A stretch of DNA of 64,000 nucleotides, from positions 26,875 through 90,874 of the IMG/VR virus record IMGVR_UViG_3300046453_000093, one strand, 5' to 3'. The notes under the pieces were generated by a model. It was not told the DNA's origin. It worked only from the letters and a program-made list of their open reading frames with translations, and did no database searches. Shown here in pieces: positions 2,253-56,736 of this stretch. The DNA comes from a virus. Taxonomy: Duplodnaviria > Heunggongvirae > Uroviricota > Caudoviricetes. The stretch's first letter is position 1. Every line of letters starts with the position of its first letter. Made by a program: the position numbers and the translations under genes.

Positions 2253-2263
2253 AGGTGATTCAA

Positions 2264-2716
2264 ATGGAGTTACAGACTATTCTTGAAAAGAATGGTGGCA
2301 CTATTAACTTTTATGGTCAATGGCAACATGATGGATTTTATTGGATTGAAGCAGACAAGGGACAAATTCATATAGCAGATGATGTATTTATTGGATGGGG
2401 AACTAGAATAGTTTGCAATGAATACATTTACATAGGAAAATGCACAATCATTGCTGAAAATGTAACGATTCGAGATATGAATCATATGTTTGATGAACCT
2501 GATGAAATAAGATACATGAAACATCAACCATATTCAACAGCACCAACAATTATTGAAGATGGGGTATGGGTTGGTGCAGGGGCTAGAATCTTAAAAGGTG
2601 TTAGGGTTGGTCATGGTGCTATTGTAGGTGCAAATGCTGTCGTTACAAAGGATGTTCCACCAAATGCAATTGTTGGTGGAGTACCTGCAAAAATTATTAA
2701 ATATAGACATGAATAG
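2264..2716 (+). CDS. hexapeptide-repeat (left-handed beta-helix) sugar O-acetyltransferase, MAT/WbbJ-like
   Basis: Tandem hexapeptide repeats [46 protein letters not shown]. Start moved to the ATG at 2264, preceded by RBS agaggtga; the track ORF begins at 2201 inside the upstream gene. Confidence 0.75.
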
Positions 2717-2727
2717 GAGGTGACAGG

Positions 2728-3906: not shown

Positions 3907-3923
3907 GGATTGAAGGTGAAAAG

Positions 3924-13500: not shown

Positions 13501-15188
13501 GAGGTATTCCACAAACTGCTACTTCTATTAAATGGGCTTTCGACCTGTTTACCACTGTTGACAAAGTTATTATTTATGACAATAACAATGTGAAGCTGAC
13601 TGAAGTCTTAAGTGGTACGACTGAGTGGGTTGAAACAGGGCTACTACCAAATAGTACTTACACTAGAAAAGCAAGATATGTAAAAAATGGTGTAGAAGAC
13701 AGTGTATATGTTGTTGTCTCTAATAATACCTATGCCACTTTAGTTGTCCCTCAAAGTGCAAGTGGAGTCGCTGTGAATACTAATACCATTACTTGGTCTT
13801 GGGATGATACGGTAAACCAAGGTATCACTGGATTTGAAGTACTAGATAAATTCAACAATGTAAAATACAGTGGTAGCAATACGGTTAAGTCTTGGACTTC
13901 CAAACAATTAAGATACGGAACAGATTATGAGCGATATGTGAGAAGTGTTCGTAATGGTGAAAAAAGTGGATTAGTTAAGATAACTGCTAGGACACAGGAC
14001 AGACCTGCAAATATAGATGAGATGACGACATATGAAACTTTGAATGTTAGTCAGGATGTTTATATCAATTCAAGCACTCCGACTTCATCATCATCAACAG
14101 GTGCTATAAGCTACATTGGAAAATCAGGAACTACTTTATATAGGTATTTAATTAAATTTAATACTTCAACCATTCCAATTGGACGTGAATTAAAAACCGC
14201 AAAAATTAGGATTTATGAAACCTCCTATTCAGGTACTCCATCACAAATGGGACTTTATAAAATTACACAAAGTTGGTTAGATACTGCAAATTGGAATACT
14301 CAACCATCTTGTGAAAGTATTTCGATTGCTCAAATACCATTTTCTTCGACAACTGGAAAATATTATGAAGCCAATTTACCTATCGCAAATATCCAAGATT
14401 GGGCAAATAATAATAATGGGTTATTAATCAAGTCAGACGAAGTATCGTCAGGGTATGTACAAGTAAATACTTATGAGGGATTATTCCAACCATTTTTGGA
14501 CATATCGCATGAGTCGCCAATTGCCCCATTATCACCTAGCAATTTACAAGGCTCAATCAAAACAGGCTCAAGTATTTTATGGCAGTGGAATGAAACAACT
14601 TCTATTAACGCTCAAGGCTATCGTATTTACAATGCTGACAATGACCAATTGATTGTTGAATTACCTGTCGGAATTACAAGTTATGAAGAAACTGGCAGAG
14701 TTATGGGAATAACATATAATCGCTATGTGGTTGCATATAATTCCTATGGTGAGTCTCAAGTTGTTTTGACCTCTTATTTGTTCGACCAATCACCTCCAAC
14801 TAATATTGTTGGCACACCACAATCTTCAAGTCGCATAATTTGGACATTCGAGCCTGTGAGTGGATTTACAGAATATCGTATTTATTACTTTAATTCAACG
14901 AACAATACAAATACTCTTTTCGCTAGGGTAAAATATGAAAATGGGCAATATAACACGTATTTAGAAAGTAACTTAACGACTCCAATAGGTGGTTTCGGAA
15001 ATCCTCAGTTACCACGTAACGGATTGAACCCAAATACGACAGAGACAATAAAGGTAACGACAGTTGGAGAAACATATGAAAGCAGATATTCTAACTCAGT
15101 TAGTGCAACAACTTACACGCTACCACCAATGAGAACAATCAGTGGTCAAAAACTAGGTTTGAATAATTTAAAATGGACAATTATATAG
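10545..15188 (+). CDS. giant (1547 aa) virion-associated adhesin-like protein: repeated fibronectin type III domains plus three CBM-like (DNRLRE-type) beta-sandwich modules
   Basis: Repeated FN3 pairs (EYRIYNADTDQLIG...YNRYVVAYNSGGES twice; IKWTWNALAEAEKYVIYDNNNVKL...TSYTRKIRYV twice). Three modules sharing LVKNWLSNPSSNYGFGL / LVKNWINNPSSNYGVSIRHNG / IQDWANNNNGLLIKSDE. Very S/T/N-rich. Confidence 0.6.
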   Translation: MEELLLERQLNSKTYLNEDGTRTMKYFGRPIHFDKNGKLEEIDVNFHLNTTSNPAYYLFNTVNNSFRIGLSKNLSIDKSIKFSFRYDGVGDIFTTIKGLALYDSEKDEYTIFEKPQANTGSIENNIAKYPNVFNGMDFEFHSLDDKLKEYIYLNDKGNIPNPTDYGYNPETTYLIVLNELSTNLLELQYNEEQLEVYNEGIQKLISPKEWAKDNDQKDLTILNNYNADTGEYYFGVPYSEIQNANLPITIDPTWQTSGVPTVQNFDCTYEFDSFEGGYYTYPNLTTLGMFPENGGYISQRSMIKFDLSGLLASFNNVVKAYFNFTFQSTNAFYLSILTSYSPNSQNMFENIIPNSTGFLVASSPVDVTAVVKNWLSNPSSNYGFGLDYFGGNTSRIYGLGSGVSTQPYLSIDYVSSVLGFTGLPTSNSIKWTWNALAEAEKYVIYDNNNVKLAEIPSGTLTWTETGLSPNTSYTRKIRYVTGGVEQTPETVASATTYTVLQPVSNLVATNVTSNSATWQWGDIVFGNELAPLFDSGRWSTSSTVTFNSPTKLTIDNTSGSYFGSYVEITVKSNTNYLLNLLKGGTGASTNGYVRITGVVNGVVEATNIANNNTGVAIPFNSGTYSSLRIFFYANYTSGGISFENVSIKETNSGIISYEILDKNGVLLYTTPDGNTKTWTENNLRYSSNYIRQVRVARNGERSSNVQVSVTTSARPINMSAQTITVNPSADTYNNGFNPTINYGTATQFSVGRGASVSYLYKGFLKFPIPLSTDITLNTATLKLYSTTAISTSYNWFIENVNSQWDETTLNYNNMPVSNTTTPLYNVSRAISANIDSDFVLDATLVKNWINNPSSNYGVSIRHNGTTNGNFAQFNSKESADATKIPRLVINYTPSIPPLKPTVLSGAVLSSSSIRWSWSAGDGTATEYRIYNADTDQLIGTSSTSSFDESGVTLGNTYNRYVVAYNSGGESPVTSTTLHTSPLANFRGIPQTATSIKWAFDLFTTVDKVIIYDNNNVKLTEVLSGTTEWVETGLLPNSTYTRKARYVKNGVEDSVYVVVSNNTYATLVVPQSASGVAVNTNTITWSWDDTVNQGITGFEVLDKFNNVKYSGSNTVKSWTSKQLRYGTDYERYVRSVRNGEKSGLVKITARTQDRPANIDEMTTYETLNVSQDVYINSSTPTSSSSTGAISYIGKSGTTLYRYLIKFNTSTIPIGRELKTAKIRIYETSYSGTPSQMGLYKITQSWLDTANWNTQPSCESISIAQIPFSSTTGKYYEANLPIANIQDWANNNNGLLIKSDEVSSGYVQVNTYEGLFQPFLDISHESPIAPLSPSNLQGSIKTGSSILWQWNETTSINAQGYRIYNADNDQLIVELPVGITSYEETGRVMGITYNRYVVAYNSYGESQVVLTSYLFDQSPPTNIVGTPQSSSRIIWTFEPVSGFTEYRIYYFNSTNNTNTLFARVKYENGQYNTYLESNLTTPIGGFGNPQLPRNGLNPNTTETIKVTTVGETYESRYSNSVSATTYTLPPMRTISGQKLGLNNLKWTII

Positions 15189-25010: not shown

Positions 25011-28000
25011 ATGGATAATTTACAAATATTATTAACAGGTTCACTTAACACCAAAAGTTCAGTTCCTGAGATAAATAAAGCTATTAGCATTATTGAACAG
25101 TCTAAAGATTTACAGAAAATAAAGTTAAAAGTTGATATAGACCCAACTGCTCTTGATGCCATTAAGAAAATTGCAGAATCAGTAAAAAATATACCTAAAC
25201 CAAAGATTGACATGAAGGAAGCAACAAAGTCCGCTGAAATACAAATGAAGCAGTTTAAAGAGCAAAATGTTAAATATTGGGCTGAAATTGGTGAAGGTGT
25301 AGATGGTGTAAAAAAGAAATTGGGTCATAAATATGGTGACAGTAATCTTTTAAATGTTACCCAAATAAAAGGTGAAAGCGAACAGCTAAAGTCATTTTCT
25401 GTGAACGTTGAAACTGCAACTGGAAAAATGCGACAATTCAACTATGAAAAAGCAAAAGTTCAAATGGCTAATGGTAGCGAAGAAACAAGATGGGTTGCCA
25501 CTTTAATTAGAGATTTAGATATTACTGGCAAAGAATATAAAGAAGTACTAAAACTTCAGGCAAGACTAGAATCACAACTAAAATCTAGTTTGACAAAGGG
25601 AAGTATTGATAAAAAGACACATGATAGCCTGTTAGACAATGTAAAACAAGCCAAGTCAAAACAAGAATTAGAAACTTTCCAAAATACAAATAAGGTATTG
25701 TTGGCAGAATATCAGACTGAGGAAAAAATTACAAAAGAGATTGAAAAACAAGTTCAATTATTACAAACAAAAATGAGAAACATTAATGCTGAAGGCTCTA
25801 TTCCTAAAGACAGAAGAAGTTCAATGGGTAGTGACCTCAAGAATATAAAAACGATGGAAGACCTTACTAATTTTACAAAGAAGTATGAAAATGAATTAAT
25901 AACACTTACAGCAACTGAGAAAAAGTATGCACAAGGAAAAGAAAAACTATCAAACTTAATTCTAAAATTAGGTCAAGATGGACAGATAAGCGAAGGAAGA
26001 TTGAAAAGGTTAAATAGTGCATTAAATAGTTCTGAGAATTTAGCACAAATAACTAAGTTAGAACAGGCAATTGCAAGAACAATAGCTAATAAGAAAAAAA
26101 TGGATGATATCAATTCATTTCAAAGGAAATCGAAATCAAACACTGATAGCCTAATAACAACAGCGGGTAGCCATGTAGATATATCTGCACTTAAAGCATA
26201 TCAAGATAGGGTAAACTCATTGTCTTTGCGAACTAAGGATTATCAAAATGTTCTGAAACAGCTTGGTATTGAGTATTCAGATTTAGAGAAAAAAGCCAAG
26301 AGTGCGCAAATGTCTGAAAAAATGATGTTAGATGAAGCAAAAGATAGATTGAAAACACAGTTGGAAACATTGAGAATAAAAGGGAAAATAGATGACACTC
26401 AACACAAGGCACTCACTGGAAAAGTTGATAGTGCTACAACAAGTATGCAATTAAAAACATTTGAAAATGAGAATAAGATATTGCTCGCTCAATATGATGT
26501 CAATCAAAAGAACACGAAGGAATTGCAGAAGCAAATAGACTTACAACAAACAAAAATGAGAAATATCAATGCACAAGGTTCTGTCCCTGAAAAACGTAGA
26601 ACAGAAATGGGCAATGACCTAAAAAGCATTAAGTCAATGCAAGATTTAACTAACTTTACACAAAAATACAGCAAAGAGTTAGCAACTGCAACTGTATCAG
26701 AGAAAAAATTCTCAACTGGTCAAGATGCCATGAGAAATCGTATAAAACAGTTGGGGGAAGATGGGTTAATAACTGAAAAAAGACTCAAATCCTTAAACAA
26801 TGCTGTCAATACTACAAAGAATGTAGAAGAAGTTAAAAAACTAGAAGGAATAATCGACAAGCTTGAAGCAAAAGTAAAAAAGAAACAAAAAATTGAACTT
26901 TTTCAAGCAGGTTCTAAAGTTGATATTCAAAACTTACAAAGGACATATGGGGCATATATTGATGCAAGTAAATTAAGAGATTATGATAATGCAGTAAAAG
27001 CATTGACTCCTGATACCAAAAATCTGAATCATGAAATGGCTCTCTTAATTAAAAAGTTTGCTGAACTTTCAGCTAATGCAAAAGACGCAAAGAAACTAAA
27101 AATGCCAAATCTAAATGGCTTAACACCTGAACAGCAAATGAAATCTAATTTAACAAGCCAACTGCAAAAAATGAGAGAAGCAAGTACCTTAACAGAGAAA
27201 TCGTTTATAAGATTAAATAATTCTATAAATAGTTCCCATAATATTGCAGAACTTATGAAGCTAGATGGAATCCTAAAACGTCAAGCAACTAGAAAAGAAA
27301 ACAAATTTGATGTTGGTCTATTCAAAAGACAAATGGAAACAAAGATACAAAATATGACTACCACATATGGCGATAAACATATTGACCAATCTGCACTCCA
27401 AAAATTTGAACAAAGTCTGACAAGATTAGACCCAAAATCGAGGACTCTTAAAAATGACCTTAAATTGTTAAGACAAGAAATGGCAGAATTGGAGTCGAAT
27501 ACTAGAAGAGCAAGTGGGGCTACAGAACAAGCTAACATGAGCATGGGAAAAATGTTAGCAACCGCACTTAAGAAATTCCCAGTGTGGATGTTGAGTGCCA
27601 CATTGTTCTACGCACCAATTCGTGCGTTAAGGTCTATGACTGATAGATTGATTGAAATTGATACTGCTATGACACAGATTAGACGTGTTATGGATATGCC
27701 TGATTTCAAATTCACAGAGTTGTTAGAGAGCGCAGTTAATATGAGTGATGAACTAGCAACCAAGTTAAAAGACGTACTATCCATTATGGGTGATTTTGGT
27801 CGTATGGGCTTTAATGAAAATCAACTAGTAGACATTACTAAAACTGCTCAAGTCACTCAGAACGTATCTGATTTGAACTCAACAGAAGCAGTTGACACCT
27901 TGACATCAGCAATGCTTAATTTCAACGTGTCCGCTGAGGACAGCATGACCATAATCGACAAATTGAACGAAGTGGATAACAACTATGCAATTAGTACGAA

Positions 28001-31000
28001 AGACCTAGCAGATGGAATTCGAAAAGCGGGTGCAAGTGCGAAAACTTTTGGTGTTGACCTTGACGAGTTAGTGGGATATGTTTCAGCCATCGGAAGTACC
28101 ACAAGGGAAAGTGGGGCAATCGTAGGAAATGGGTTAAAAACTATTTTCTCAAGGATTACCACTATGGATAGTGCAGAAACCGCATTGAATAACGTTGGTG
28201 TTTCAATTAAAGATATGGCAGGAAGTGTTAGACCTGTTAGTGATATTATATCAGACCTTGCAGGTAGATGGACAAGTTTAACTGACGAACAGCGTCAGAA
28301 TTTAGGGGTTACATTAGCGGGAAGACATCAGCTAACAAGATTTTTGGCGCTCATGAATAATTTCGATATTGCTATTTCTTCAACGAACACCTCTTTAAAT
28401 TCACAGGGTTCAGCTATGAAAGAGCAAGAAAAATTTGCTGACAGCTTAGAAGGACGATTAAATCGTCTAGATACCGCATGGAATAAGCTAACTTTAGCAA
28501 TGGGCGAAGCAGTTATTTCTGATGGGTTAGTTGCGGGGATAGAAGTGTTGGATGCTCTTGCTAAAAGTGTGGGTGCATTTGTAAAAACATTTGGATTCTT
28601 ACCTACTACTTTAGCTATAGTGGGTGTCGCCTTGACACTGTTTAACACTAAGATAAAAACGCTTGTGGTTAGTATGTTTTTTGGTTCTAAAGGCATGGAT
28701 ATGATGAAGCTACACGCTCTAGGAATAACAGAAGGAATGACAAGAGCAGAATACGCTACGTTGAGTCTGAAAACAGGACTTATGGCTCTTGGTGCGGTAA
28801 CAGCCGCAGGAGTAGGATTTTTTATTCTTGGTGCTATAATAGAACACTTTATTAAAAAGTCCGCTGAAGCGCAAAGACAAGCTGAAGAGATAAAGGCAAT
28901 GGAAGATGCTGAGGTCGAAGCTTTAACTAAGAATAGGGAACAAGTTGAAAAACTAATTGAACAATATAATGGTTTAACCGAAGCAAGAGGTAAATATGGA
29001 GAGAACAACACCTTAAAGCAGGAAGAAAAATATTTTGCACTACAACAAAAACTAGGCGAATTATATCCTGCCTTAATAGACCACATTGATGGTGCGGGAA
29101 GAACACATCTAAAAACAAAAGACGCAATTGAGAAAGAAAAGCAGGAAACATATGCTTTAATAGATGCCAAGAAGCTTCAAATGCAAATTGATGGAAAAGC
29201 AAAAATTGCAGAAGCAGAAACAAAAAGAAATGACTTACAGAAAAAAATTGATGATACAAAAAATGAGATAGCCAATCCTGTTAAAGTTGTTGGTTTTGGA
29301 GAAAATCAAAAAGTTGTTCAAAAAAGCCAAGAAGAACTTGATTTATTGGGAAAACAATTAAAGCTATATGAAGGTCAATGGTCAACTGCTTCACAAGCTG
29401 TCACAAACGAAACACTTAAAATAGCAGACGCTTATACAAATGTGGAAATTGACCCAAGCATACAGCAAGGTGTTGACGACTTCTTTAATTCAATTGATAC
29501 ATCTAAGATGAATTCAGGGGAATTAGAATCTTTTTCTCAACAAATTGGTGAAGCTACCAACGCACTTCAAGAAGCATATAAAAACAATGACCCTACAGCA
29601 TTCGACCAAGCTTCAGATGCTATTCGAAATATTGGTAAAAGTATGGGGCTAACAACGAGAGATATGCTTGGATTCGATTTGTCTTTTGAAGGGCTGAAAA
29701 AACAAGCAGAGATGGGTGCAAAAGCTGTTTATGCGGGTAGAGATGGCTTTGATGGTCTTGATGAAAGCGTAAGCGAAGCAGACGGAACTATGGATGAATA
29801 TTCAGGAACAATTGGTGGTGTTGCTGAGACAACCAATGGTTTAGCAGGTGGTACAAGCGCACTAGGTGGGGCAATGGGCGATTTGTTAGGTACAACTGGT
29901 GGCGTAGCTAGTGCCATGTCTGACAATGCCAATGCATCATCTATATTGTTAGGTGTTACTGAAGACCAAATTAAAGTATTGCAAAACGCTCTTGCGGTAT
30001 TCCAAGCCTTTAGTGGGCAACAAAACTTGTCTGAGCAACAAAGTATGATGTTGGCAAATGCAACTGCAACTTTATCAGCACAATTTCCACAATTTACTGG
30101 AAATTTAGCTGAGAATACTAATTTCATGTCAAAACAAATAGGCATGATGGACGCTCTAAGTGGAGTGTCAGCGGACAATACTGCTGTAATGGTTGGAAAT
30201 GAGAACAGTAAGACTAGGGCAGTAATTGAACAAACAAATCAACGTATTAATGGTTATAAAAAAGAAGCACAGGCTCTAAGTGCTTTAATGGACAGAATTG
30301 CGGCTTCTTATGATGAAGAAGGGATGTCAGGTGCAAAAACGAACGCATACCATAACGCTCAGAATAGACTTGGCGAAATAGCTGTTGAATATGCTACTGC
30401 ACAAGCAAGCTTGGTCAAACTCTATCATAGTAGTGGTGTAAAAGCGGGTGTAATCAGTACACCTAAAGATAATAAGAAAACAGGTTCAGGCAATAGTGAT
30501 TCAAAAGACGACAAAATTGAAAAAACAATTGATAAATACGAAGATAAATTACACGAACTTGACCAATCAATAAAAGCTTCTGAATCCGTTCAAAGTCGTT
30601 ACACTGAAGGTTCGACTAAATGGATAGCAGAACAAAAGAAACAAATTAAATTGCTTGGTCAAAAGAAGGCTCAAACTGAATTAGAAGAAAAAGCCTTGAG
30701 GAAACTACTTAAAACTGGCAAATTAGATAAAGACCAAAAAAAGGAAGTAAACTCTCGCCTAAAAGAATTAAGTACTACACAAACCGAATACACCACTCAA
30801 ATAAGAGAGATGGGCTTAGAGCTTGCTGATGCAAAAATTAATTATACAATTGACAAATATGAATCGTCTATAAGTAGCCTTGATGATTCTCTAGCTCAAT
30901 CTGAAGCTAAATTAAAAGGATATACCGAAGGGTCAAAAGAGTGGTCTAGTGAGATAAGTAATCAGATTGGTTTGATAAACAAAAAGAAAACAGCAAATCA

Positions 31001-33023
31001 AAATGAAATTAATGCTCTTAAACAGATATTGAAAACCGATAACCTGTCCGCTGAACAGAAAAAGGAATTAAACAAAACTATATATGCACTAACTACCACC
31101 CAAATTGAATACAATAATTCTGTTAAAGAATTGCAGAAACAACTTTCGCAAGCAAAATTAGACAAGTTGCTTGACAGTATAGCAGATTCAGCGGAAAAAG
31201 CTGATAGAGAGTTAAAGAAAATTGACGATACAATTCACATGACTGACCCAAATGATAAAGATGCAATGTTGAAGGCTCAAGAGAGCAGGATGAAAAAACT
31301 ACTGTCGATGCGGAAAGAAGCATTAGATAATATAAAAAAATTGGAAGACATGAGGGGTTCACTCGCAGGGAATTCTGAAGCACTCAAAAAAAATGCTGAA
31401 GAAATACAAGCATGGAAAGATAAATTAGCAGGAATTGATGTTGATATATTCGACCAAAAAGATGCGATAAAACAAGTTTATGAAGACATTGCTGACGCTT
31501 ATATTGATGCAATGAAAAATGCCTACGAAACCGAAAGAGATATTAAAATAAAAGAAATTGAAAAAATTCGTAAAGCAGAAGAAAAAGCGCATGAAGAAAA
31601 AATGAAAGAGTTCGAAGAACAATCGAAAGCGCTTGATGAAGAGTATAATAAAAAAATGCGTGAGATTGATGATGAAGCGTCTTCTGAGGATTACAGTAAG
31701 GGACTAGGTAAAAAACAAGAAGAATTAGCGACCCTACAGAGCAAGATTAACGCACTGTCATTGGACGATAGCCCTGAAGCTAAAAAACAACTCGCAGAAT
31801 TATTGAAACAAAAAGCTGAAAAAGAAGAAGAAATGAACGATTACATCAATGACCATAATCGTGAACAGAGAAAACAGGCAATTGAAGACGATAGAGATGC
31901 ACGACAGAAGGCAATTGATGACAACAAAGAAGCCGAAGATGAATCTTTTCAAGAGAGACAAGACGCTCTAGACGACCAAATAGAAGCCATTCAAAAAAAA
32001 TATGATGATATTCTTAACGATGAAAAAAAATGGAATACAGTAAGACAAGATATTCTCAATGGCGATATAGCGAAATATAAAGACGAACTAGATGGAATCT
32101 CAGACTATATCAAAAATAACAATAAGGAAATTGGAGAAAGTATATCTAACAATATAACCGATGCTCTTGCTGAAGCCAAAAAAGGCTTGGAAGCAATTAA
32201 AACAGGTTTTGATGACATTTCGAAACAGGCAGATGCCGAGAAAAAGAAACAGGATGATGCTGATGCAAAAAAGAGGAAAGATGAAGCTGATGCAAAAAAG
32301 AAAAAAGAAGAAGCTGAAGCCAAAAAGAAAAAAGATGCTGAAGCTAAGAAAAAGAAGGATGCTGAAGCCAAAAAGAAAAAAGATGCTGAAGCTAAGAAAA
32401 AGAAAGATGCTGAAGCGAAGAAAAAGAAAGATGCTGAAAATGATAAAGACGATAAGGATGATAAGGATGATAAGGGTAGTGGCAAATCATCAAAAAAATC
32501 TTGGGAAAGCATTGGACTAAAGAAGAAGAAATATTCAACACCTAAAGGCGGTTGGAATAAAAACAATGTAAAAGACAGAATGGCTAAACGTGGCTATGAC
32601 AACTCAGTGGCTAATCGTGCAAAACTATATAAGCACTGGGGAGGTAAAGGAACTTTTTCAGGTACAGCATCTCAAAATGCTTGGCTATTGAAGAAGATGA
32701 ACGAAAAAGGATTTAGGTCAGGTGGATATACAGGAGATTGGTTTGGTAACGATGGGAAATTAGCTATGTTACATAAAAAAGAAATTGTTTTAAATAAGGG
32801 CGATACTGAAAACTTCCTGAAAGCTATAGACATCACAAAAGATTTTGCCAATTTGTTAAAAAATATTACAATTCCTAAATTGAACGATTCTTCAAAATCT
32901 GGCAATACAGTCAACTTAAACATCAATATTGAAAATCTTCAAGGTGGCAAAAAAGGCGCAGATGATTTGATAAAAATAATCAATACTAAAATTAGGGGAA
33001 AAGGAGGTTTATTGTTGTCATGA
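25011..33023 (+). CDS. tail tape measure protein, 2670 aa (TP901-family TMP core present)
   Basis: Core region ~nt 27650-28160 (ATKLKDVLSIMGDFGRMGFNENQ...DLADGIRKAGASAKTFGVDLDELVGYVSAIGSTTRESGAIVGNGLKTIFSRI). Hydrophobic TM-like stretch ~28560-28860. Long coiled-coil N-terminal and C-terminal regions with internal duplications. Position before Dit and Tal. Confidence 0.85.
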   Translation: MDNLQILLTGSLNTKSSVPEINKAISIIEQSKDLQKIKLKVDIDPTALDAIKKIAESVKNIPKPKIDMKEATKSAEIQMKQFKEQNVKYWAEIGEGVDGVKKKLGHKYGDSNLLNVTQIKGESEQLKSFSVNVETATGKMRQFNYEKAKVQMANGSEETRWVATLIRDLDITGKEYKEVLKLQARLESQLKSSLTKGSIDKKTHDSLLDNVKQAKSKQELETFQNTNKVLLAEYQTEEKITKEIEKQVQLLQTKMRNINAEGSIPKDRRSSMGSDLKNIKTMEDLTNFTKKYENELITLTATEKKYAQGKEKLSNLILKLGQDGQISEGRLKRLNSALNSSENLAQITKLEQAIARTIANKKKMDDINSFQRKSKSNTDSLITTAGSHVDISALKAYQDRVNSLSLRTKDYQNVLKQLGIEYSDLEKKAKSAQMSEKMMLDEAKDRLKTQLETLRIKGKIDDTQHKALTGKVDSATTSMQLKTFENENKILLAQYDVNQKNTKELQKQIDLQQTKMRNINAQGSVPEKRRTEMGNDLKSIKSMQDLTNFTQKYSKELATATVSEKKFSTGQDAMRNRIKQLGEDGLITEKRLKSLNNAVNTTKNVEEVKKLEGIIDKLEAKVKKKQKIELFQAGSKVDIQNLQRTYGAYIDASKLRDYDNAVKALTPDTKNLNHEMALLIKKFAELSANAKDAKKLKMPNLNGLTPEQQMKSNLTSQLQKMREASTLTEKSFIRLNNSINSSHNIAELMKLDGILKRQATRKENKFDVGLFKRQMETKIQNMTTTYGDKHIDQSALQKFEQSLTRLDPKSRTLKNDLKLLRQEMAELESNTRRASGATEQANMSMGKMLATALKKFPVWMLSATLFYAPIRALRSMTDRLIEIDTAMTQIRRVMDMPDFKFTELLESAVNMSDELATKLKDVLSIMGDFGRMGFNENQLVDITKTAQVTQNVSDLNSTEAVDTLTSAMLNFNVSAEDSMTIIDKLNEVDNNYAISTKDLADGIRKAGASAKTFGVDLDELVGYVSAIGSTTRESGAIVGNGLKTIFSRITTMDSAETALNNVGVSIKDMAGSVRPVSDIISDLAGRWTSLTDEQRQNLGVTLAGRHQLTRFLALMNNFDIAISSTNTSLNSQGSAMKEQEKFADSLEGRLNRLDTAWNKLTLAMGEAVISDGLVAGIEVLDALAKSVGAFVKTFGFLPTTLAIVGVALTLFNTKIKTLVVSMFFGSKGMDMMKLHALGITEGMTRAEYATLSLKTGLMALGAVTAAGVGFFILGAIIEHFIKKSAEAQRQAEEIKAMEDAEVEALTKNREQVEKLIEQYNGLTEARGKYGENNTLKQEEKYFALQQKLGELYPALIDHIDGAGRTHLKTKDAIEKEKQETYALIDAKKLQMQIDGKAKIAEAETKRNDLQKKIDDTKNEIANPVKVVGFGENQKVVQKSQEELDLLGKQLKLYEGQWSTASQAVTNETLKIADAYTNVEIDPSIQQGVDDFFNSIDTSKMNSGELESFSQQIGEATNALQEAYKNNDPTAFDQASDAIRNIGKSMGLTTRDMLGFDLSFEGLKKQAEMGAKAVYAGRDGFDGLDESVSEADGTMDEYSGTIGGVAETTNGLAGGTSALGGAMGDLLGTTGGVASAMSDNANASSILLGVTEDQIKVLQNALAVFQAFSGQQNLSEQQSMMLANATATLSAQFPQFTGNLAENTNFMSKQIGMMDALSGVSADNTAVMVGNENSKTRAVIEQTNQRINGYKKEAQALSALMDRIAASYDEEGMSGAKTNAYHNAQNRLGEIAVEYATAQASLVKLYHSSGVKAGVISTPKDNKKTGSGNSDSKDDKIEKTIDKYEDKLHELDQSIKASESVQSRYTEGSTKWIAEQKKQIKLLGQKKAQTELEEKALRKLLKTGKLDKDQKKEVNSRLKELSTTQTEYTTQIREMGLELADAKINYTIDKYESSISSLDDSLAQSEAKLKGYTEGSKEWSSEISNQIGLINKKKTANQNEINALKQILKTDNLSAEQKKELNKTIYALTTTQIEYNNSVKELQKQLSQAKLDKLLDSIADSAEKADRELKKIDDTIHMTDPNDKDAMLKAQESRMKKLLSMRKEALDNIKKLEDMRGSLAGNSEALKKNAEEIQAWKDKLAGIDVDIFDQKDAIKQVYEDIADAYIDAMKNAYETERDIKIKEIEKIRKAEEKAHEEKMKEFEEQSKALDEEYNKKMREIDDEASSEDYSKGLGKKQEELATLQSKINALSLDDSPEAKKQLAELLKQKAEKEEEMNDYINDHNREQRKQAIEDDRDARQKAIDDNKEAEDESFQERQDALDDQIEAIQKKYDDILNDEKKWNTVRQDILNGDIAKYKDELDGISDYIKNNNKEIGESISNNITDALAEAKKGLEAIKTGFDDISKQADAEKKKQDDADAKKRKDEADAKKKKEEAEAKKKKDAEAKKKKDAEAKKKKDAEAKKKKDAEAKKKKDAENDKDDKDDKDDKGSGKSSKKSWESIGLKKKKYSTPKGGWNKNNVKDRMAKRGYDNSVANRAKLYKHWGGKGTFSGTASQNAWLLKKMNEKGFRSGGYTGDWFGNDGKLAMLHKKEIVLNKGDTENFLKAIDITKDFANLLKNITIPKLNDSSKSGNTVNLNINIENLQGGKKGADDLIKIINTKIRGKGGLLLS
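32254..32476 (+). repeat. in-frame tandem repeats inside TMP: ~7 copies of a 24-nt unit (gatgctgaagcYaaRaagaaaaaR = DAEAKKKK) followed by 4 copies of a 9-nt unit (gataaRgaY = DKD)
   Basis: Directly visible periodicity in nucleotide and protein sequence (KKKKDAEAKKKKDAEA...DKDDKDDKDDKG). Confidence 0.85.
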
Positions 33024-50808: not shown

Positions 50809-51106
50809 GCTGATTCACCTTCTTTAAATACTGAACCATTTTCAGTAAAGTATTTGCTAATTCTTCAGTTTGCATTATCGTTAGAAAGATTGACGAACCT
50901 TCGCCTAGATGATAAACATCACTGCAATCATCAGTTATTTCCAAACAAATAGGGGTAGTATCGTCCTGTTCTGCTGTCTCTCTTAGTGTAGCACTATTAC
51001 TAAATACTTTTACATAATTGTCACCCATATTTTCTTTCTGATAATTGTAGATATATTGGTCTTCAAATTTTACATCAATCATTTGCATTTTCCACCTTTC
51101 TTTCAA
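50801..51106 (-). CDS. hypothetical protein
   Basis: 101 aa. Confidence 0.35.
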   Translation of the reverse strand: MKERWKMQMIDVKFEDQYIYNYQKENMGDNYVKVFSNSATLRETAEQDDTTPICLEITDDCSDVYHLGEGSSIFLTIMQTEELANTLLKMVQYLKKVNQHD

Positions 51107-52397
51107 CTAGTTTGCAAGTTTGTAAAAATGCTTCTTGTATGTCATCTCGCTGTTTCCATTCTTCATTTTCGTCCATATACCATTTACCATCTTCTGATGT
51201 GCCAGTAATATTAATCACATCTCCAACGTACAGATGGGGAATACCATCCTTGTCATAATACTTCTTTTTCTTAACTTTCAATTTTATAATGTCTCCTGTT
51301 TTCAAGTTGTACAAGGATAAAATTGGAGTATACTTATCATTAATATCAATGATGGCAAAAGTATTTTCATCCTGATTAAGATATGTTGTTCTCATGAATC
51401 CATAGAATTCTTTTTCGATTTCTAATGGCTTATAAAGAGAGATTTGTTCTGCCTGTTTAAAGGTCTGTTTTAAATTTGTTTCATTTTCATGTTGTAATTG
51501 GATTCTTTTTATTTTGCTTTTTTCAACATACTTTTTATCGTATTTGATTCCTTTGCCATTCTTAAAAGAATCGTAAAGTTCAAAAATTAATTGCTTTTCT
51601 CCAAATTTTTTAAAGAAATCTAATTGGATTAGAATCTTCATCTGTCTGCTGTCTATAGCTGTCTTTTCAATGATATCAACTAACAAGTCTGTAAAGAATT
51701 TATAGTCATTATCCTTTAAATTGTATAGGCTTTCAGCCATTTGTAGATTGCAGTGTTTGACTAATTTCATTCCATAATTTATTTTATCGTTTGTTAGAGC
51801 GCAATAAGATACAGGATTTTTAAAACTGATAGGGTCAACCTGAACACCCAATCGTTTTGCTTCAAGATAAATTCCTTCGAACCTGTCAGGCTTTCCATCA
51901 AACGAGTTAAATAGTGCTGTCATGAATTCTTTTGGATGATAGACTTTTAAAAAGGCACAGATGTAAGCGATTATCGCATATGCAAATGAATGAGATTTAT
52001 TAAAGGAATATTTAGAAAACTCAAGCATGTCCTTCCAAAGCTGTTCAAATTGCTCATTCGTCCACCCTCTATCTTGGACAAGCCCTTTAATTAATTCATC
52101 ACGACATTCAGCCATAAGTTTAGGTAATTTTTTTCCAGTTGCTTTCCTAAGCTTGTCGCTGTTTCGCATCTTAGCCAATCTGCCAACTTCAATTAATTGC
52201 TCTTGGAATACAATGATTCCATATGTAGGTTTCAGGATATTCTCCAAATCAGGGTGAAGGTATTCAAATTCTTCTTCACCATGTTTTCTAGCAATATAGT
52301 TGTCTATGTATTTCATAGCACCTGGTCGATAAAGTGCATTAGCAACAGCCAAATCGTCTAGACAAGTTGGTTTCATTTTTTCAAGTGTTCTTTTCAT
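51075..52397 (-). CDS. dnaE: DNA polymerase III alpha (DnaE-type) - 3' exon / C-terminal portion
   Basis: SGMKRTLEKMKPTCLDDLAVANALYRPGAMKYIDNYIARKHGEEEF...PTYGIIVFQEQLIEV aligns to E. coli DnaE [30 protein letters not shown]...NFIDRKHGREE...PTYGIILYQEQVMQI. Confidence 0.8.
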   Translation of the reverse strand: MKRTLEKMKPTCLDDLAVANALYRPGAMKYIDNYIARKHGEEEFEYLHPDLENILKPTYGIIVFQEQLIEVGRLAKMRNSDKLRKATGKKLPKLMAECRDELIKGLVQDRGWTNEQFEQLWKDMLEFSKYSFNKSHSFAYAIIAYICAFLKVYHPKEFMTALFNSFDGKPDRFEGIYLEAKRLGVQVDPISFKNPVSYCALTNDKINYGMKLVKHCNLQMAESLYNLKDNDYKFFTDLLVDIIEKTAIDSRQMKILIQLDFFKKFGEKQLIFELYDSFKNGKGIKYDKKYVEKSKIKRIQLQHENETNLKQTFKQAEQISLYKPLEIEKEFYGFMRTTYLNQDENTFAIIDINDKYTPILSLYNLKTGDIIKLKVKKKKYYDKDGIPHLYVGDVINITGTSEDGKWYMDENEEWKQRDDIQEAFLQTCKLVERKVENAND

Positions 52398-52404
52398 ACC
52401 GCTT

Positions 52405-52799
52405 GCACATAATCCTATGTTTCCATAGGTGCTGACTATATCATCTCACCTCTAAAAATAGAGGTTTGTTCCGTATTTCGAGTGGTAGCCTATTGCCCAC
52501 CCTACTCCCTACCTCTCGGATTGGGATAGTCGATTCACATTTAGATTATATTTAACATTTGTCTAAGATTAAACACTTATTGTCATCACCTCAATATTAA
52601 TCAAGGCAATATGTTAAATATAATCATTTAGCACAGGATTACCATATCTTAAAAGACTTAGGCTTCCCTGTTAGCACGAATATTAATAAGTCATTTCCTA
52701 CTTAAAAGGACACACCTTATTCGCACACCTCTAGGCAATAGAGTTAACGAAATTTAATCGAGTAGTGTCACCACTACAAGTGAGCCATTTTACTAACTC
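52405..52799 (-). ncRNA. group I self-splicing intron (no ORF) interrupting the dnaE-type polymerase gene; boundaries approximate
   Basis: Non-coding ~390 nt between two polymerase segments that are colinear with DnaE. On minus strand, R-like element gugaaucGACUAu (~52535) and S-like element gaugauaUAGUCag (~52437) can form P7 (GACUA/UAGUC). Multiple in-frame stops. Confidence 0.7.
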
Positions 52800-54701
52800 A
52801 AATTGAAATACTCCATCTGTAAAACCTTTTTGGAATACTTCCTTATATACTTTTTCATCATCAAAGTCTATGATTGCGGGGTCTAAATATTCACGATACT
52901 TTTTCTTAATCATGTCCAATACATCATAATAAACATCAACGGTTCTTAACCCAAGAAGGTCTACTTTAACTATTCCAAGGTCTTCAGCGTCATTCATATC
53001 CATTTGGAAAACTAAGTGACCATCGTTCTCTGCAAGTGCATGGTAATAATCTAATTCATCAATAGTAATAGCTTTCCCACATGGATGTACACCGAAGCTT
53101 CTAGGTAAACCCGCCAACTTTTCAGCATACATGAATAATTGCGGATACCTCTTTTCCCATTTCTGTGTATAGCCTTCCTCTCTTGCGTCTTGGATAGTTA
53201 AGTCATTTAAGTCTTTTGTGATATTGTTCAAGATATTAAAGTCAATACCTAGCACTCTACCAACATCTTTAATTGCAGACTTGTCCCAAATGTAGCCAAA
53301 TTGTCCAAGTGAAGCAAATTTCTTTTTCGTATATTTCTCCTCAATGTTTTGGACAACCTTTTCTCTGTCTTTTGTGCCGAAATCTGAATCTACATCGGGG
53401 ATTTTTAGTTCTTTTGGTGTGATGATTCCCTCTTTCAATAAATCCAATTGACCTACATCAATAAATCTTTCAAAGTATAGTCCATACTTTATAGGGTCAA
53501 TGTCAACTATATTTAAGAGGTAAGCAATAAGACATCCTCCACCACTTCCCCTTGCAATCCCACGTCTTTCAACAGAATTTACATATGAGTAAACTAATAA
53601 GAAGTATCCAATGAATCCCATATCTCTTACAGCATTGAATTCATATTCTAAACGCTCTTGATATATTTTACGTGTGTTTTTGTCCTTTTTATTTATTCCC
53701 CTCTGTTTCCAACCTGTATTACAAAGGTCTTTGAGATATTCTTCTTCGTTTTTATATTCGAATGGAATATCAACATGTGGAATTAAAGGTGCTGATAGTG
53801 GAATATGAACGTTGCATTTGTCAGCTATTAATCTTGTTGCTCTTATCGCAATCTCAGCTTCTTCTTCTGTAAGAGTGGGCTGAAGAAGTCTCATTACATC
53901 AGATTCGCTTTGTAAAAAGGCATCGAGATAAGTTTCGCCCGCTTCCCTGTTTTGTCCAATTTGAATAAATATTCCATGTAAGTCGAAATCTTCTTCTTCT
54001 GTATAGTGGCTATCTGCTGTAACAACATATTCGACATTCATTTCTTTTGCTATATCTACAATTGCCCTATTAAGCCTTCTTTGTTTAATGTCTCTATGAG
54101 ATTGAATTTCTAAGTAATAATCATCCTTGAATACTTCTTTATATTTCTTTATTACACCTTTTGCTTCAGTAATGCCCTGTTCAGTTATAATAATGTCTTC
54201 TTTGTTTCCAATTTTCCCACTAGCAAGCGTTTGTTGAACTTGTCCTGCCATACATCCTGAAAAAATAATTAAACCTTCACTATGTTGTTTTAGTAGTTCA
54301 AAGTCTACCCTTGGTTTGCTATAAAAACCCTCTAAGTAGCCTTTGGTGACTAGTTTGTTTAGGTTGAGTCTACCTTTTTCATTTTTAGCCAAAACAGTCA
54401 TATGATAATATTTATTGTCTTTGTCTTTATCAAACCTACTCTTTGGAGAAATGTATAGTTCACAACCATGTATGTACTTCACACTCTGTTTTTTGCATTC
54501 TTTATATATTTTTACACTACTAAACAATGAACCATGCTCAGTAATTGCCATTGCAGACTGATTCATTTTTTTAACTTTATTTATCATTTGTTCAGGTTTT
54601 GACATGCCATCAAGTAATGAGTATGCCGAATGACAATGTAAATTGATAAATTTGTCATCATCTGAAACTTTAATTAATCCATGTGTATTACTATTGCACA
54701 C
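52731..54701 (-). CDS. dnaE: DNA polymerase III alpha (DnaE-type) - 5' exon / N-terminal portion (PHP + palm); last ~20 codons are intron read-through
   Basis: PHP domain FINLHCHSAYSLLDG near N-terminus. ORF ends ...GVFQFE followed by intron-encoded residues (E. coli GVFQLESRGMK). Confidence 0.8.
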   Translation of the reverse strand: MCNSNTHGLIKVSDDDKFINLHCHSAYSLLDGMSKPEQMINKVKKMNQSAMAITEHGSLFSSVKIYKECKKQSVKYIHGCELYISPKSRFDKDKDNKYYHMTVLAKNEKGRLNLNKLVTKGYLEGFYSKPRVDFELLKQHSEGLIIFSGCMAGQVQQTLASGKIGNKEDIIITEQGITEAKGVIKKYKEVFKDDYYLEIQSHRDIKQRRLNRAIVDIAKEMNVEYVVTADSHYTEEEDFDLHGIFIQIGQNREAGETYLDAFLQSESDVMRLLQPTLTEEEAEIAIRATRLIADKCNVHIPLSAPLIPHVDIPFEYKNEEEYLKDLCNTGWKQRGINKKDKNTRKIYQERLEYEFNAVRDMGFIGYFLLVYSYVNSVERRGIARGSGGGCLIAYLLNIVDIDPIKYGLYFERFIDVGQLDLLKEGIITPKELKIPDVDSDFGTKDREKVVQNIEEKYTKKKFASLGQFGYIWDKSAIKDVGRVLGIDFNILNNITKDLNDLTIQDAREEGYTQKWEKRYPQLFMYAEKLAGLPRSFGVHPCGKAITIDELDYYHALAENDGHLVFQMDMNDAEDLGIVKVDLLGLRTVDVYYDVLDMIKKKYREYLDPAIIDFDDEKVYKEVFQKGFTDGVFQFELVKWLTCSGDTTRLNFVNSIA

Positions 54702-55377
54702 TTGAATCGACCCCTCCTATTCCATATTCTTCAAATAAATGTTTTTGTGGGGAATATTTTCCGAAATATTTAAACTCAGCTTCTAACCTTAACTTGATAG
54801 CTTCTTCAATAATTTTTGAAGTACCAAGGTATATTTTTTCATAATCAACCTTTATGTGTGCTTGATAATTTTTATCTCTTTTTTGATACGAAACTCCAAT
54901 AAAGCCTGTATTGCTTCTAGAGACACCTTTATTTCTAGAATTTTGCTGATTATTACAAACTCTTAAATTAGACTTTCTATTGTCTAATCTTTTTGTGTTT
55001 TCGTGGTCTACTTGGTCATTGTCGCTTGTAACATCCATAATTAATCTATGCATTCTAATGGCAGAACTATTACAAACTGCATATCCATGTTTTGACAAAT
55101 GCCATTTATGTTTATTAACCTTGTCTATATCCTCAATGTCAATTAATGCCCTAGCAATTTCCCTGTTTGCTTTATCGTACAGAACAACTTCAGCAAAATT
55201 ATCTTTAATAATTATTTCATTCTTATCAAATTTTGTTTTTGTTAATATTTGTCCGTATTGTAGCATCTGACTATAATGTTTTCCACACATGTATCTACCA
55301 TTTGTTATCTTGGACTTTGGTGTGTACATTCGTGATGTTTCATATTCACTTATTCCGCAAATATCGCAAGTTCTCAA
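54691..55377 (-). CDS. free-standing HNH homing-type endonuclease with AP2 DNA-binding domain
   Basis: HNH motif VDHENTKRLDNRKSNLRVCNNQQNSRN. AP2-like GFIGVSYQKRDKNYQAHI...YLG. N-terminal Cys cluster. Immediately upstream of the intron-containing polymerase gene. Confidence 0.75.
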   Translation of the reverse strand: MRTCDICGISEYETSRMYTPKSKITNGRYMCGKHYSQMLQYGQILTKTKFDKNEIIIKDNFAEVVLYDKANREIARALIDIEDIDKVNKHKWHLSKHGYAVCNSSAIRMHRLIMDVTSDNDQVDHENTKRLDNRKSNLRVCNNQQNSRNKGVSRSNTGFIGVSYQKRDKNYQAHIKVDYEKIYLGTSKIIEEAIKLRLEAEFKYFGKYSPQKHLFEEYGIGGVDSSVQ

Positions 55378-55451
55378 TAATCCTCACTCCTTTACTAATA
55401 ACAACTTAATACAATTGTATCACAAGTGTTAAATATAATCAATATCATTCA

Positions 55452-55497: not shown

Positions 55498-56736
55498 CTA
55501 TTTTAAATACTCTTTTTCTTTCTTTTTATTGAATTCATCGGCTTTGTCAAGCAAATATTTGAAGACTGCCTTTTGACCTGAACTACTAGCTGAGAACATC
55601 ACATTGGTATTTTTTCCTATTCCTCTGATTCCACCATAATTAAGCCAATCTTCATTCTTGTATGTCCAATCAATTTGTCCTAATAATGTGTAAATATCAT
55701 CTTCATTCGCAAACAAACGTTCTTCTTTAGCTTGAGACACAAATTTACATATTCCAATTAGCGCATAGCTTTTTTCAATAATATACCTTCCTTTTGTGTC
55801 CATATCGTCAGGCAATGCGAATAAGATTTTTTCAAATTTAGAATTCACACTATTCTTCACTCTGTCAAAATTCTTTTTCTTCAAGAAATTCTTATCACAG
55901 ACAAGGCTTGAACTCAATAGCTCTTTAATGGAGTTGTAGATTGTCGTTAATAGGAATGTGTTTTGATTACTCTTGAATATAGATTGCTTATCGGTTTCAA
56001 CACCATAATGAATGAAATACCTGTTGGTTTCACCTATTTCCTTAGCCATCTTCGCAAATAAATCTGTTTGAGACAGACGGATATTGGCACTTTTAGACGG
56101 TCTTCTAGCCAAGTTGTTCAAGTCGAAAAATAATTGAGATTCTTGTTCTTCGTCTAAACCGTTAAAAATGATAACAGGTATAGTCATTTCTTCCAACATT
56201 TCTAGTTGTTTTTCAATATTCGTCTTTTCGCTTAAGTCACTTGTCTTCTCAATTTTTGTTTTTAATTCTTGTATTGCTTCTTTAACGCTTTCTGTTCTAT
56301 GTTGACCATCGTTTATGGACATCTTACTATTGGTGTCAATAAGGATGGTTCTTTTATCATCATCATAAATAATAGTTCCCTTGCAGGTAACAGTTATTGA
56401 GTTAAAGAATCGCATGTATGCTTCTGAATTCTCTTCGTCCCCAATACCGCTAAGTATATATTTCTTTAAAGATTTAACATTGTTTTTGCTCATGCTACGC
56501 TGTATCTTTGGAAACACTTCCAAAAATTTAGACAAGTCTTTAAATTTTAACATTGAAGAATATACTTCTTTCCCAAACTGATAGCCCTTCACTCCTGAGA
56601 TTTGAGCATACCGTTCAAAATTTAAATCAATCGTCTTTTTGTTCTTGGTTCTATAGAGTATGTCTTCCGATTTCTGTAAATCAGTTGCGAATTGCGACAT
56701 CATCATTTCTCCTTTGTTTTGCAATTTTTTCTTCAA
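55498..56736 (-). CDS. DGQHR-domain protein (DndB-like family)
   Basis: Motif INDGQHRTESV. ~400 aa. Probable true start at one of the Met triplet (MMMSQ, ~56706) to avoid overlap with the upstream RHH gene. Confidence 0.6.
   Translation of the reverse strand: MKKKLQNKGEMMMSQFATDLQKSEDILYRTKNKKTIDLNFERYAQISGVKGYQFGKEVYSSMLKFKDLSKFLEVFPKIQRSMSKNNVKSLKKYILSGIGDEENSEAYMRFFNSITVTCKGTIIYDDDKRTILIDTNSKMSINDGQHRTESVKEAIQELKTKIEKTSDLSEKTNIEKQLEMLEEMTIPVIIFNGLDEEQESQLFFDLNNLARRPSKSANIRLSQTDLFAKMAKEIGETNRYFIHYGVETDKQSIFKSNQNTFLLTTIYNSIKELLSSSLVCDKNFLKKKNFDRVKNSVNSKFEKILFALPDDMDTKGRYIIEKSYALIGICKFVSQAKEERLFANEDDIYTLLGQIDWTYKNEDWLNYGGIRGIGKNTNVMFSASSSGQKAVFKYLLDKADEFNKKKEKEYLK

Follow-up and report, generated by a model that had tools for sequence, protein, structure and literature searches.

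When a phage replicative polymerase gene is read as two pieces and a homing endonuclease gene lies beside it, two questions arise: whether the pieces are one gene, and whether the endonuclease has anything to do with what separates them. Such a locus lies in a 64,000-nt stretch of DNA from a virus of the Caudoviricetes (IMG/VR record IMGVR_UViG_3300046453_000093, positions 26,875 to 90,874), the whole of which is hereafter called the window, with position 1 as its first letter. The polymerase is of the DnaE type (DNA polymerase III alpha, family C), and the sequence evidence confirms that its gene, dnaE, is interrupted by a 390-nt group I intron that lacks an open reading frame (ORF) and is predicted to be self-splicing. 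We consider it likely that this IA-type intron is spliced from the dnaE pre-mRNA and that the neighboring gene, for an HNH endonuclease with an AP2-like domain (HNH-AP2), is a separate, free-standing element. The parts of the split gene are as follows.

52796..54701, minus strand: dnaE exon 1, GTG start at 54701; the last base, U52796, is the first base of codon 636
52406..52795, minus strand: group I intron, subgroup IA-like, ORF-less, 390 nt
51075..52405, minus strand: dnaE exon 2, opening with the CA of codon 636, stop codon included

Two polymerase ORFs form one gene

The upstream minus-strand ORF (52731-54701, 656 amino acids (aa)) matches the Pfam domains PHP, DNA_pol3_alpha, and positions 7-48 of DNA_pol3_finger, and the downstream ORF (51075-52397, 440 aa, minus strand) matches positions 52-164 of DNA_pol3_finger (E value, 1e-31) and HHH_6. 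Both are colinear with DnaE, and the domain order of the family (PF02811, PF07733, PF17657, PF14579) is kept across the two exons. Exon 1 encodes the PHP domain (2e-47), the palm/thumb (DNA_pol3_alpha, 2e-58), and the first part of the fingers domain; its product begins with an N terminus, MC..., that is conserved among relatives, and a Shine–Dalgarno sequence, AGGAGG, stands at 54718-54713. Exon 2 encodes the remaining fingers domain, the HhH, and the C-terminal region. Joining U52796 to C52405 computationally gives GAG-UCA-AGC-GGU-AUG, or ...GVFQFE-S-SGMKRT..., within a single ORF of 1078 aa in which the split codon U|CA (phase 1) encodes Ser. The spliced GVFQFESSGMK aligns without a gap with GVFQFESVGMK of Brevibacillus phage Sundance, whose DnaE is uninterrupted (63% identity over 277 aa), and with the Pol III alpha structures of E. 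coli (AVFQLESRGMK, approximately residues 608-618) and Thermus (E about 1e-50). Matches to the spliced polymerase in the Protein Data Bank (PDB) were 2HNH, 2HPI, and 5LEW (E 1e-43 to 1e-51). The first-pass annotation of this DNA had recognized the two ORFs as colinear with DnaE, which the ordered Pfam domains and the gapless junction alignment bear out, but it had assigned the interruption to a palm motif; Pfam and the structure alignment place the insertion in the fingers domain, at about position 50 of 166 in DNA_pol3_finger.

Two ORFs might instead represent a natural two-subunit polymerase, or a gene disrupted by decayed intron-like DNA, with no splicing in either case. GenBank lists the homologues of Bacillus phage vB_BauM_KLEB27-3 (OM634661; hereafter KLEB27-3) and of WH1 as two "DNA polymerase III alpha" coding sequences, and an ATG at 52397 happens to lie close to where exon 2 starts. 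However, the break falls inside a codon of a conserved motif that only the exact 390-nt excision restores, and the exon 1 frame reads 21 codons into the intron before a stop. No Shine–Dalgarno sequence was found 5 to 10 nt from ATG 52397, the closest AGGA being 15 nt away, and this lack of a usable ribosome-binding site for exon 2 argues against two separate polypeptides. The core helices described below are all intact and covarying, and no replicative polymerase other than DnaE is seen in the window. We therefore regard a locus without splicing as highly improbable. With splicing, the "polymerase fragments" make up a single gene, for a full-length DnaE replicase of 1078 aa, and the split-gene annotations of KLEB27-3 and several metagenomic phages call for correction in the same way.

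Ends of the intron and its detection

At the 5' splice site, exon 1 ends in ...UUUGAGU, and U52796 forms a U•G wobble with G52785 of the guide GCUCA (52785-52781); at the 3' splice site, the last intron bases are ...UUAUGUG, of which the terminal G is 52406. Each frame of the intron contains 10 to 17 stops, and the longest open stretch is 34 codons. An intein was considered and is ruled out by stops in all frames.

A local search of 52250-52950 (701 nt) with lax filters matched the Rfam model RF00028 (Intron_gpI) over its full length (model positions 1-253) at 52413-52742 on the minus strand, with 51.7 bits and an E value of 3.4e-12; the gathering score is 50 bits. Whole-window Rfam searches, at the gathering threshold and at E <= 0.001, did not report the intron. 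Because the speed filters tighten with longer input, these misses are a filter artifact and not evidence against the intron. A second intron was not detected in the window, although the same misses limit the force of this absence. The intron folds with a minimum free energy z-score of −5.09 against 100 shuffles, and the centroid fold recovers most of its helices.

The first-pass annotation had proposed a DnaE gene split by a group I intron with no ORF, and the Rfam score, the U•G pair in P1, the terminal G, and the restored frame uphold that proposal; the stop counts likewise bear out its stops in all frames. Its range, 52405-52799, did contain the intron, but the ends were off, with 4 nt and 1 nt of exon included. 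It had also named an Rfam search as a check. The local search supports the intron and the whole-window searches do not, so that a routine scan would have dismissed a genuine intron.

Secondary structure

The helices are listed below by window coordinate, by intron position, or by both, where the window coordinate equals 52796 minus the intron position.

52781..52800, minus strand: P1, exon −5..−1 / 11-15, exon UGAGU (52800-52796) with GCUCA (52785-52781)
52762..52777, minus strand: P2, 19-24 / 29-34, GUAGUG-GUGA-CACUAC
52748..52752 (UUUCG) and 52469..52473 (CGGAA), minus strand: P3, 44-48 / 323-327, supported by covariation
52676..52743, minus strand: extra domain P3.1/P3.2, approximately 68 nt, between P3 and J3/4
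52743-52739 / 52733-52729, minus strand: P3.1, 53-57 / 63-67, a hairpin
52724-52718 / 52682-52676, minus strand: P3.2, 72-78 / 114-120, enclosing two small hairpins
Intron 125-130 / 158-163, minus strand: P4
Intron 133-135 / 153-155, minus strand: P5
Intron 140-142 / 147-149, minus strand: P5a
52633..52671, minus strand: P4-P5-P5a, 92.6% identity over 52 nt with Twort orf142 intron 1
Intron 164-165 / 258-259, minus strand: P6
52625-52611 / 52558-52544, minus strand: P6a, 171-185 / 238-252, a perfect 15-bp stem with a structured 52-nt insert
52527..52531 (GACUA, R) and 52434..52438 (UAGUC, S), minus strand: P7, 265-269 / 358-362
Intron 270-273 / 287-290, minus strand: P7.1, UCCC/GGGA
Intron 294-299 / 311-316, minus strand: P7.2, GGGUGG/CCACUC
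52448..52465, minus strand: P8, 331-337 / 342-348, ACCUCUA-UUUU-UAGAGGU
52429-52414, minus strand: P9, 367-372 / 377-382, CCUAUG-GAAA-CAUAGG, followed by UUAUGUG
52406, minus strand: terminal G, intron position 390

GACUA (52531-52527) and UAGUC (52438-52434), already picked out as R- and S-like elements in the first reading of the sequence, pair as P7. P7.1 and P7.2 together span 52480..52526, between P7 and P3', and align with the same elements in the KLEB27-3 intron; their presence places the intron in subgroup IA (IA2-like). The layout of subgroup IA in which the 5' strand of P3 directly precedes J3/4 and P4, as in Twort orf142-I1, is not found here. Instead, approximately 75 nt (UUAAC, P3.1, GGUGU, P3.2, GC) separate P3 from UAA-P4. 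The GAGU/GCUC pairing of P1 also occurs in the KLEB27-3 intron, in which P2 (GGGGUG-GUGA-CAUCCC) and P9 (CCCAUA-GUAA-UAUGGG) show compensatory changes.

Two other candidates for P3 were rejected. The Rfam alignment takes the 3' strand of P3.2 as the 5' strand of P3 (intron 114-121 with 322-328), which is incompatible with P3.2, because 114-120 covaries with 72-78 in all relatives. The second candidate, GGUGU/RYRCC, overlaps the P3' strand that covariation supports.

The P6a stem is AU-rich and forms an 82-nt hairpin (52544-52625) at the place where the KLEB27-3, L018, L022, and L036 introns hold endonuclease ORFs. P6a might be the scar of a deletion or, alternatively, a place for an endonuclease gene to land.

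Introns that share the P3.1/P3.2 domain

Twelve introns, namely, those of the window, KLEB27-3, and loci L013, L016, L018, L022, L025, L028, L036, L045, L046, and L054, share the order P3, UGAAC, P3.1 hairpin, GGUGU, P3.2 helix, GCUAAC, P4. Covariation was counted on a rule-anchored alignment (A1) over the 17 pairs of P3, P3.1, and P3.2. A standard pair occupied 98% of the cells, and 16 of the 17 pairs showed compensatory changes: all five in P3, with every cell paired, and 11 of 12 in P3.1 and P3.2, with 93% and 100% of cells paired, respectively. None of 500 shuffles reached the observed score, and sliding the 3' partner by one to three columns left 32 to 47% of cells paired. P7 is uninformative in this count, being invariant, since the sequences were chosen by their P7 pattern. 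The pattern spanning P7 to P7' occurred in 52 viral contigs; another pattern, TGTGAATCGACTATCC...GATGATATAGTCAG, had no match in the viral contigs, being too strict.

Seven of the 12 introns have no ORF and the others hold one in P6, which indicates that the ORF-less state is common in this family. The distance from P4 to P7 is 736 to 922 nt in the ORF-bearing relatives versus 140 nt in the window intron. A scan of 11 loci (L001, L013, L016, L018, L022, L025, L028, L036, L045, L046, and L054) at the Rfam gathering threshold found none of their 11 introns of this family and did find five other group I introns; the KLEB27-3 intron gave no Rfam match because of the large ORF inside it. Default Rfam filtering can thus miss real introns of this lineage.

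A pairing named P3.1 is given as an optional element of group I introns (PMC3873408). No description of the P3.1/P3.2 domain, and no named subgroup known to have one, turned up in the searchable literature; searches on group I introns in phage dnaE, on KLEB27-3, and on "P3.2" returned nothing specific. We tentatively raise the possibility, which we hold to be less probable than its opposite, that the intron belongs to a structurally distinct, uncatalogued lineage of subgroup IA phage introns defined by this domain. In that case, such introns in dnaE and other replication genes would account for a sizeable number of phage genes annotated as split or fragmented.

One viral contig (L054) carries at least three group I introns within 3 kb, at 309-589, 1819-2100, and 2997-3093 on the minus strand; Rfam finds two of them, and another belongs to the P3.1/P3.2 family.

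Related introns at the same site and at other sites in phage dnaE

The nearest relative of the window intron is in KLEB27-3, whose dnaE is annotated as gp166 and gp164 with an HNH gene, gp165, between them. That intron (L001 5037-6035, 999 nt) occupies the identical phase 1 position, AUUGAGU|...CGUG|CACCAGG, in the Ser codon after FQxE, and both of its halves align with the window intron at approximately 70 to 72% identity. The two share the P3.1/P3.2 architecture, with compensatory changes in P2, P8, and P9, but differ in that KLEB27-3 holds the HNH ORF gp165 in P6 where the window intron has the 82-nt P6a hairpin. The DnaE of KLEB27-3 is only about 32% identical to that of the window. By contrast, all DnaE genes that are 52 to 69% identical (Sundance, L003-L006, L059-L061, L073, and L074) are intronless at the window site. 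In distant dnaE genes (L022/L034, L028, and L029; approximately 25% identity), related IA introns lie 2 nt downstream, at FQFEG|. Because related introns sit at the same codon in KLEB27-3 and 2 nt downstream in these others, the FQxES codons of phage dnaE are a recurrent target of this intron type, shared by polymerases only 25 to 32% identical to the window DnaE. The distribution of the intron does not track the polymerase tree, from which we infer horizontal homing.

Phage dnaE appears to be heavily invaded by introns, and at least three further sites in it are occupied, the KIPDVD codons included. This motif, which we take to hold the catalytic aspartates, is a second recurrent insertion site: KIPD|VD is interrupted in L006 (5252-6469), in L073 (7898-9134), and in L028 and L012 (DnaE residues 415/436). 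The insertions in L006 and L073 carry a LAGLIDADG ORF, and the site in L028 holds a group I intron detected by Rfam (5491-5807, 84 bits). Other interruptions are at residue 584/585 in L061 (4309-5000) and at about residue 772 (FNK|SHS) in L022/L034 (L022 about 2615-4241). Enterocloster phage CB457P2 (L064) has two dnaE introns with I-HmuI-like HNH ORFs, and the pieces are annotated as "hypothetical proteins."

The free-standing HNH-AP2 gene

Immediately upstream of dnaE are the following two features.

54691..55377, minus strand: free-standing HNH endonuclease gene, 228 aa, TTG start at 55377, AP2-like C-terminal domain
55414..55442, minus strand: promoter-like site, TTGATT-17-TACAAT with an upstream TG; a consensus match only, not enriched over shuffles

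The HNH protein has an N-terminal CxxC...CxxH finger, an HNH motif (VDHEN...LDNRKSNLR...QN), and an AP2-like C-terminal domain. Its Pfam scores are below threshold (HNH_3, 20.1 bits against 24.8; AP2, 13.2 bits against 33.3), and it matches PHROG 99, "HNH endonuclease," with an E value of 2e-33. The database search gave 325 homologues, of which many, including many at 40 to 57% identity, carry PF13392 together with PF00847. In an alignment with homologues (A2), the motif DH..N...DNRK.NLR is conserved, with H125, N137, and R139 invariant. The HNH protein had no meaningful match by sequence in the PDB, and no relatives of it were found in the viral contigs. It is identical to a JGI metagenome protein. 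The public JGI gene call (P0001, 212 aa) starts at Met17 and drops the first CxxC of the finger, which homologues conserve; TTG 55377, preceded by AAAGGAG, is the better start.

As the first-pass annotation had stated, the gene is free-standing and overlaps the polymerase start. The overlap is 11 nt, the GTG of dnaE (54701) preceding the HNH stop codon by that distance. The HNH gene ends in ...EEYGIGGVDSSVQ*, and GGAATAGGAGG, which encodes GIGG, is the dnaE Shine–Dalgarno sequence; it is part of the HNH gene's conserved ...EEYGIGG codons. To judge from this arrangement, the HNH gene is built into dnaE expression, and because the ribosome-binding site is inside its C-terminal codons, loss of the selfish gene would damage expression of the polymerase. 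Transcription of the HNH gene together with dnaE could start from the promoter-like site 5' of the former.

A shorter HNH-like protein (155-166 aa), with the zinc finger and without AP2, is encoded near the dnaE start in phages of the Sundance clade (L004 3432-3932, L005 2812-3291, L006 2737-3204, and L074 1725-2147), where no intron is present. It is 24 to 31% identical to the N-terminal half of the window HNH and may be inactive, the last residue of the motif apparently being lost.

Relation of the HNH-AP2 gene to the intron

Homologues of the window HNH near dnaE are listed below with their identity to it, their position, and the state of the neighboring polymerase gene.

P0003 (L073), 57%: overlaps the dnaE start; DnaE of the Sundance clade, 51-60% identical; no intron at FQFES
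P0002 (L074), 55%: overlaps the dnaE start; DnaE of the Sundance clade, 55% identical; no intron at FQFES
P0007 (L077), 42%: directly 5' of dnaE, which is intact (1063 aa)
Bacillus phage vB_BcoS-136 gp167, 46%: directly 5' of dnaE, which is intact; DnaE 28% identical
Psychrobacillus phage Perkons ORF112, 36%: directly 5' of dnaE, which is intact; DnaE 24% identical
Enterocloster CB457P2 gp67, 40%: one ORF upstream of dnaE, which two other introns interrupt, both encoding an I-HmuI-like HNH of their own

The neighboring DnaE proteins are 24 to 60% identical to that of the window, and their low identity in the distant phages indicates that the HNH is more conserved there than the polymerase it abuts. 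At least six unrelated groups of phages have a member of the HNH-AP2 lineage directly 5' of dnaE (window 54691-54720; L065, L066, L073, L074, and L077). Because the closest homologues of the window HNH sit there beside dnaE without an intron at FQFES, the niche of the lineage appears, from these placements, to be the 5' boundary of phage dnaE, irrespective of whether codon 636 is interrupted. Such a niche, independent of any intron, is what "intronless homing" by a free-standing endonuclease gene predicts (PMC3984707). Remoter members of the family adjoin topoisomerase, nrdD, thyX, RuvC, or other genes, and these placements fit targets near each gene's own insertion point. The window HNH has no similarity to KLEB27-3 gp165 or to ORFs of the other intron loci, which indicates that it is not an escaped copy of those ORFs.

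Collaborative homing, suggested by the first-pass annotation, would have the HNH cleave the intronless FQFES site, with the intron splitting that site, protecting the genome, and being mobilized by the cut. An ORF-less intron and a free-standing HNH do lie within 2 kb in one operon, and the concept is established for the psbA intron and F-CphI of cyanophage S-PM2 and for a second phage system (reviewed in PMC3984707). The comparison of genomes nevertheless runs against this explanation. The genomes with the nearest HNH homologues (55-57%), placed as here and of the same DnaE clade, keep the intronless site intact; in L073 it reads TTTCAATTTGAGT|CAGTAGG, with the exon 1 side identical to exon 1 of the window (this dnaE carries a LAGLIDADG-containing insertion at another site); L077, Perkons, and vB_BcoS-136 likewise keep the HNH beside dnaE with no intron there. 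Other members of the family are found beside topoisomerase, nrdD, and thyX, and the homologous KLEB27-3 intron uses an unrelated, intron-encoded HNH. Since collaborative homing requires a cut at a site that the orthologues keep intact, it would be possible only if downstream polymorphisms protected those genomes, and we judge it very unlikely.

Homing in trans, as by T4 mobE, is a somewhat better candidate, although still an improbable one. Here, the HNH would cut or nick the 5' end of a dnaE allele lacking the homing endonuclease gene (HEG), and repair from the HEG+ genome would co-convert up to approximately 2 kb and in some cases carry along the intron 1.9 kb downstream, which would persist without an endonuclease of its own. 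T4 MobE nicks the 5' region of nrdB, and the ensuing gene conversion, with co-conversion tracts of at most approximately 2 kb, brings the defunct nrdB intron with it (Wilson & Edgell 2009, PMC2790892); the layout, a free-standing HNH immediately upstream and a nonautonomous intron inside the target gene, is shared. The distance is nevertheless at the outer edge of the reported tract length, a T4 figure from which the tracts of this phage group may differ. Moreover, the orthologous HEG+ genomes L073 and L074 did not gain the intron, whose nearest relative, in KLEB27-3, is without such an upstream HNH.

Several points weigh against taking the locus as a spliced intron beside an independent HNH gene. 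The Rfam score is barely above threshold and the default pipeline misses the intron; P10 is weak (2 bp); and we infer both the splicing and the endonuclease activity. In the first 150 nt of dnaE, a comparison of HEG+ and HEG− genomes revealed no diagnostic polymorphism pointing to an HNH target. The intron and HNH-AP2 are both present here and both absent in Sundance, L003, and L059-L061, a co-occurrence that is compatible with joint arrival, and 1906 nt separate the dnaE start from the intron site, less than the T4 co-conversion limit of approximately 2 kb (PMC2790892); these last two observations also speak for homing in trans. On balance, the link between HNH and intron looks coincidental, or at most a mobE-like hitchhiking. 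A locus with both elements is a natural test case for distinguishing collaborative homing, trans homing, and coincidence.

Proposed course of splicing and origin of the two elements

In the reading we prefer, the pre-mRNA of the DnaE-type replicase would carry the ORF-less IA-type intron after the first base of codon 636, in the motif FQ(F/L)ES. The guide GCUCA would pair with the exon end UGAGU and set the U•G at the splice site, as the anatomy of the intron and its family membership suggest. An external guanosine bound at P7 (GACUA/UAGUC) would attack the 5' splice site, and the terminal G at 52406 would next take its place, so that the exons would be joined as GAG-UCA-AGC. Splicing would yield one polymerase of 1078 aa, and unspliced RNA only a truncated, 656-aa product. 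The intron would represent a mobile lineage that has arrived at the same dnaE codon in one very distant phage and at neighboring positions elsewhere; its own endonuclease gene was presumably lost from P6a or never acquired. The HNH-AP2 gene would be a separate, free-standing homing endonuclease gene, habitually at the 5' boundary of dnaE and supplying the dnaE ribosome-binding site, and the probable activity of its product is to cut or nick, close to that boundary, dnaE alleles that lack the HEG. Two selfish elements may thus each have settled on the same conserved gene.

The surrounding region

The window is a phage segment of approximately 33% GC in which a plus-strand structural module is followed by a minus-strand replication module. 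The latter holds RNase H, a ParB/DndB-like protein, HNH, dnaE, and RusA, and is syntenic with Sundance; a megablast search with 15 kb of the window against the phage genome collection gave no match. Directly upstream of the HNH gene, 55498-56736 encodes a 412-aa ParB-like protein (PHROG 1033, weak), and the same module of L073 has a DndB-domain gene downstream of RusA. The plus-strand module opens with a cluster (383-5021) of one gene resembling a nucleotide-sugar epimerase and three resembling glycosyltransferases, which are unusual cargo among phage structural genes. This module also holds very large ORFs, 25011-33023 and 10545-15188 (2670 aa and 1547 aa), the 1547-aa one with a weak segment resembling a major tail protein. 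A search for tRNA genes in the window found none.

Comparison with known systems

The locus resembles T4 mobE/nrdB in that a free-standing HNH is embedded in the expression signals of its target gene. It differs in that the window HNH has an AP2-like DNA-binding domain, lies approximately 1.9 kb from the intron, and has orthologues that occur without the intron. With the psbA intron and F-CphI of S-PM2 it shares the combination of an intron lacking an ORF with a free-standing endonuclease gene at one and the same host gene, but there the target is the intron insertion site, which is disfavored here by HEG+ genomes with an intronless site.

Besides the KLEB27-3 intron, the closest known introns are the subgroup IA2 phage introns, such as those of T4 td/nrdB/sunY, Twort orf142, and the SPO1 DNA polymerase gene with I-HmuI. 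Group I chemistry (as predicted for the window intron), P7.1/P7.2 between P7 and P3', and a P7 of GACUA/UAGUC are held in common, as is the type of host gene, a conserved one for replication or nucleotide metabolism in a Firmicute phage. The differences are that the window intron has no ORF, that Twort orf142-I1 lacks the approximately 68-nt P3.1/P3.2 domain, and that the host gene is DnaE (family C), whereas the SPO1 DNA polymerase belongs to family A. Overall, the intron is of an already known type, an ordinary kind of phage group I intron in a replication gene, beside a free-standing HNH homing gene.

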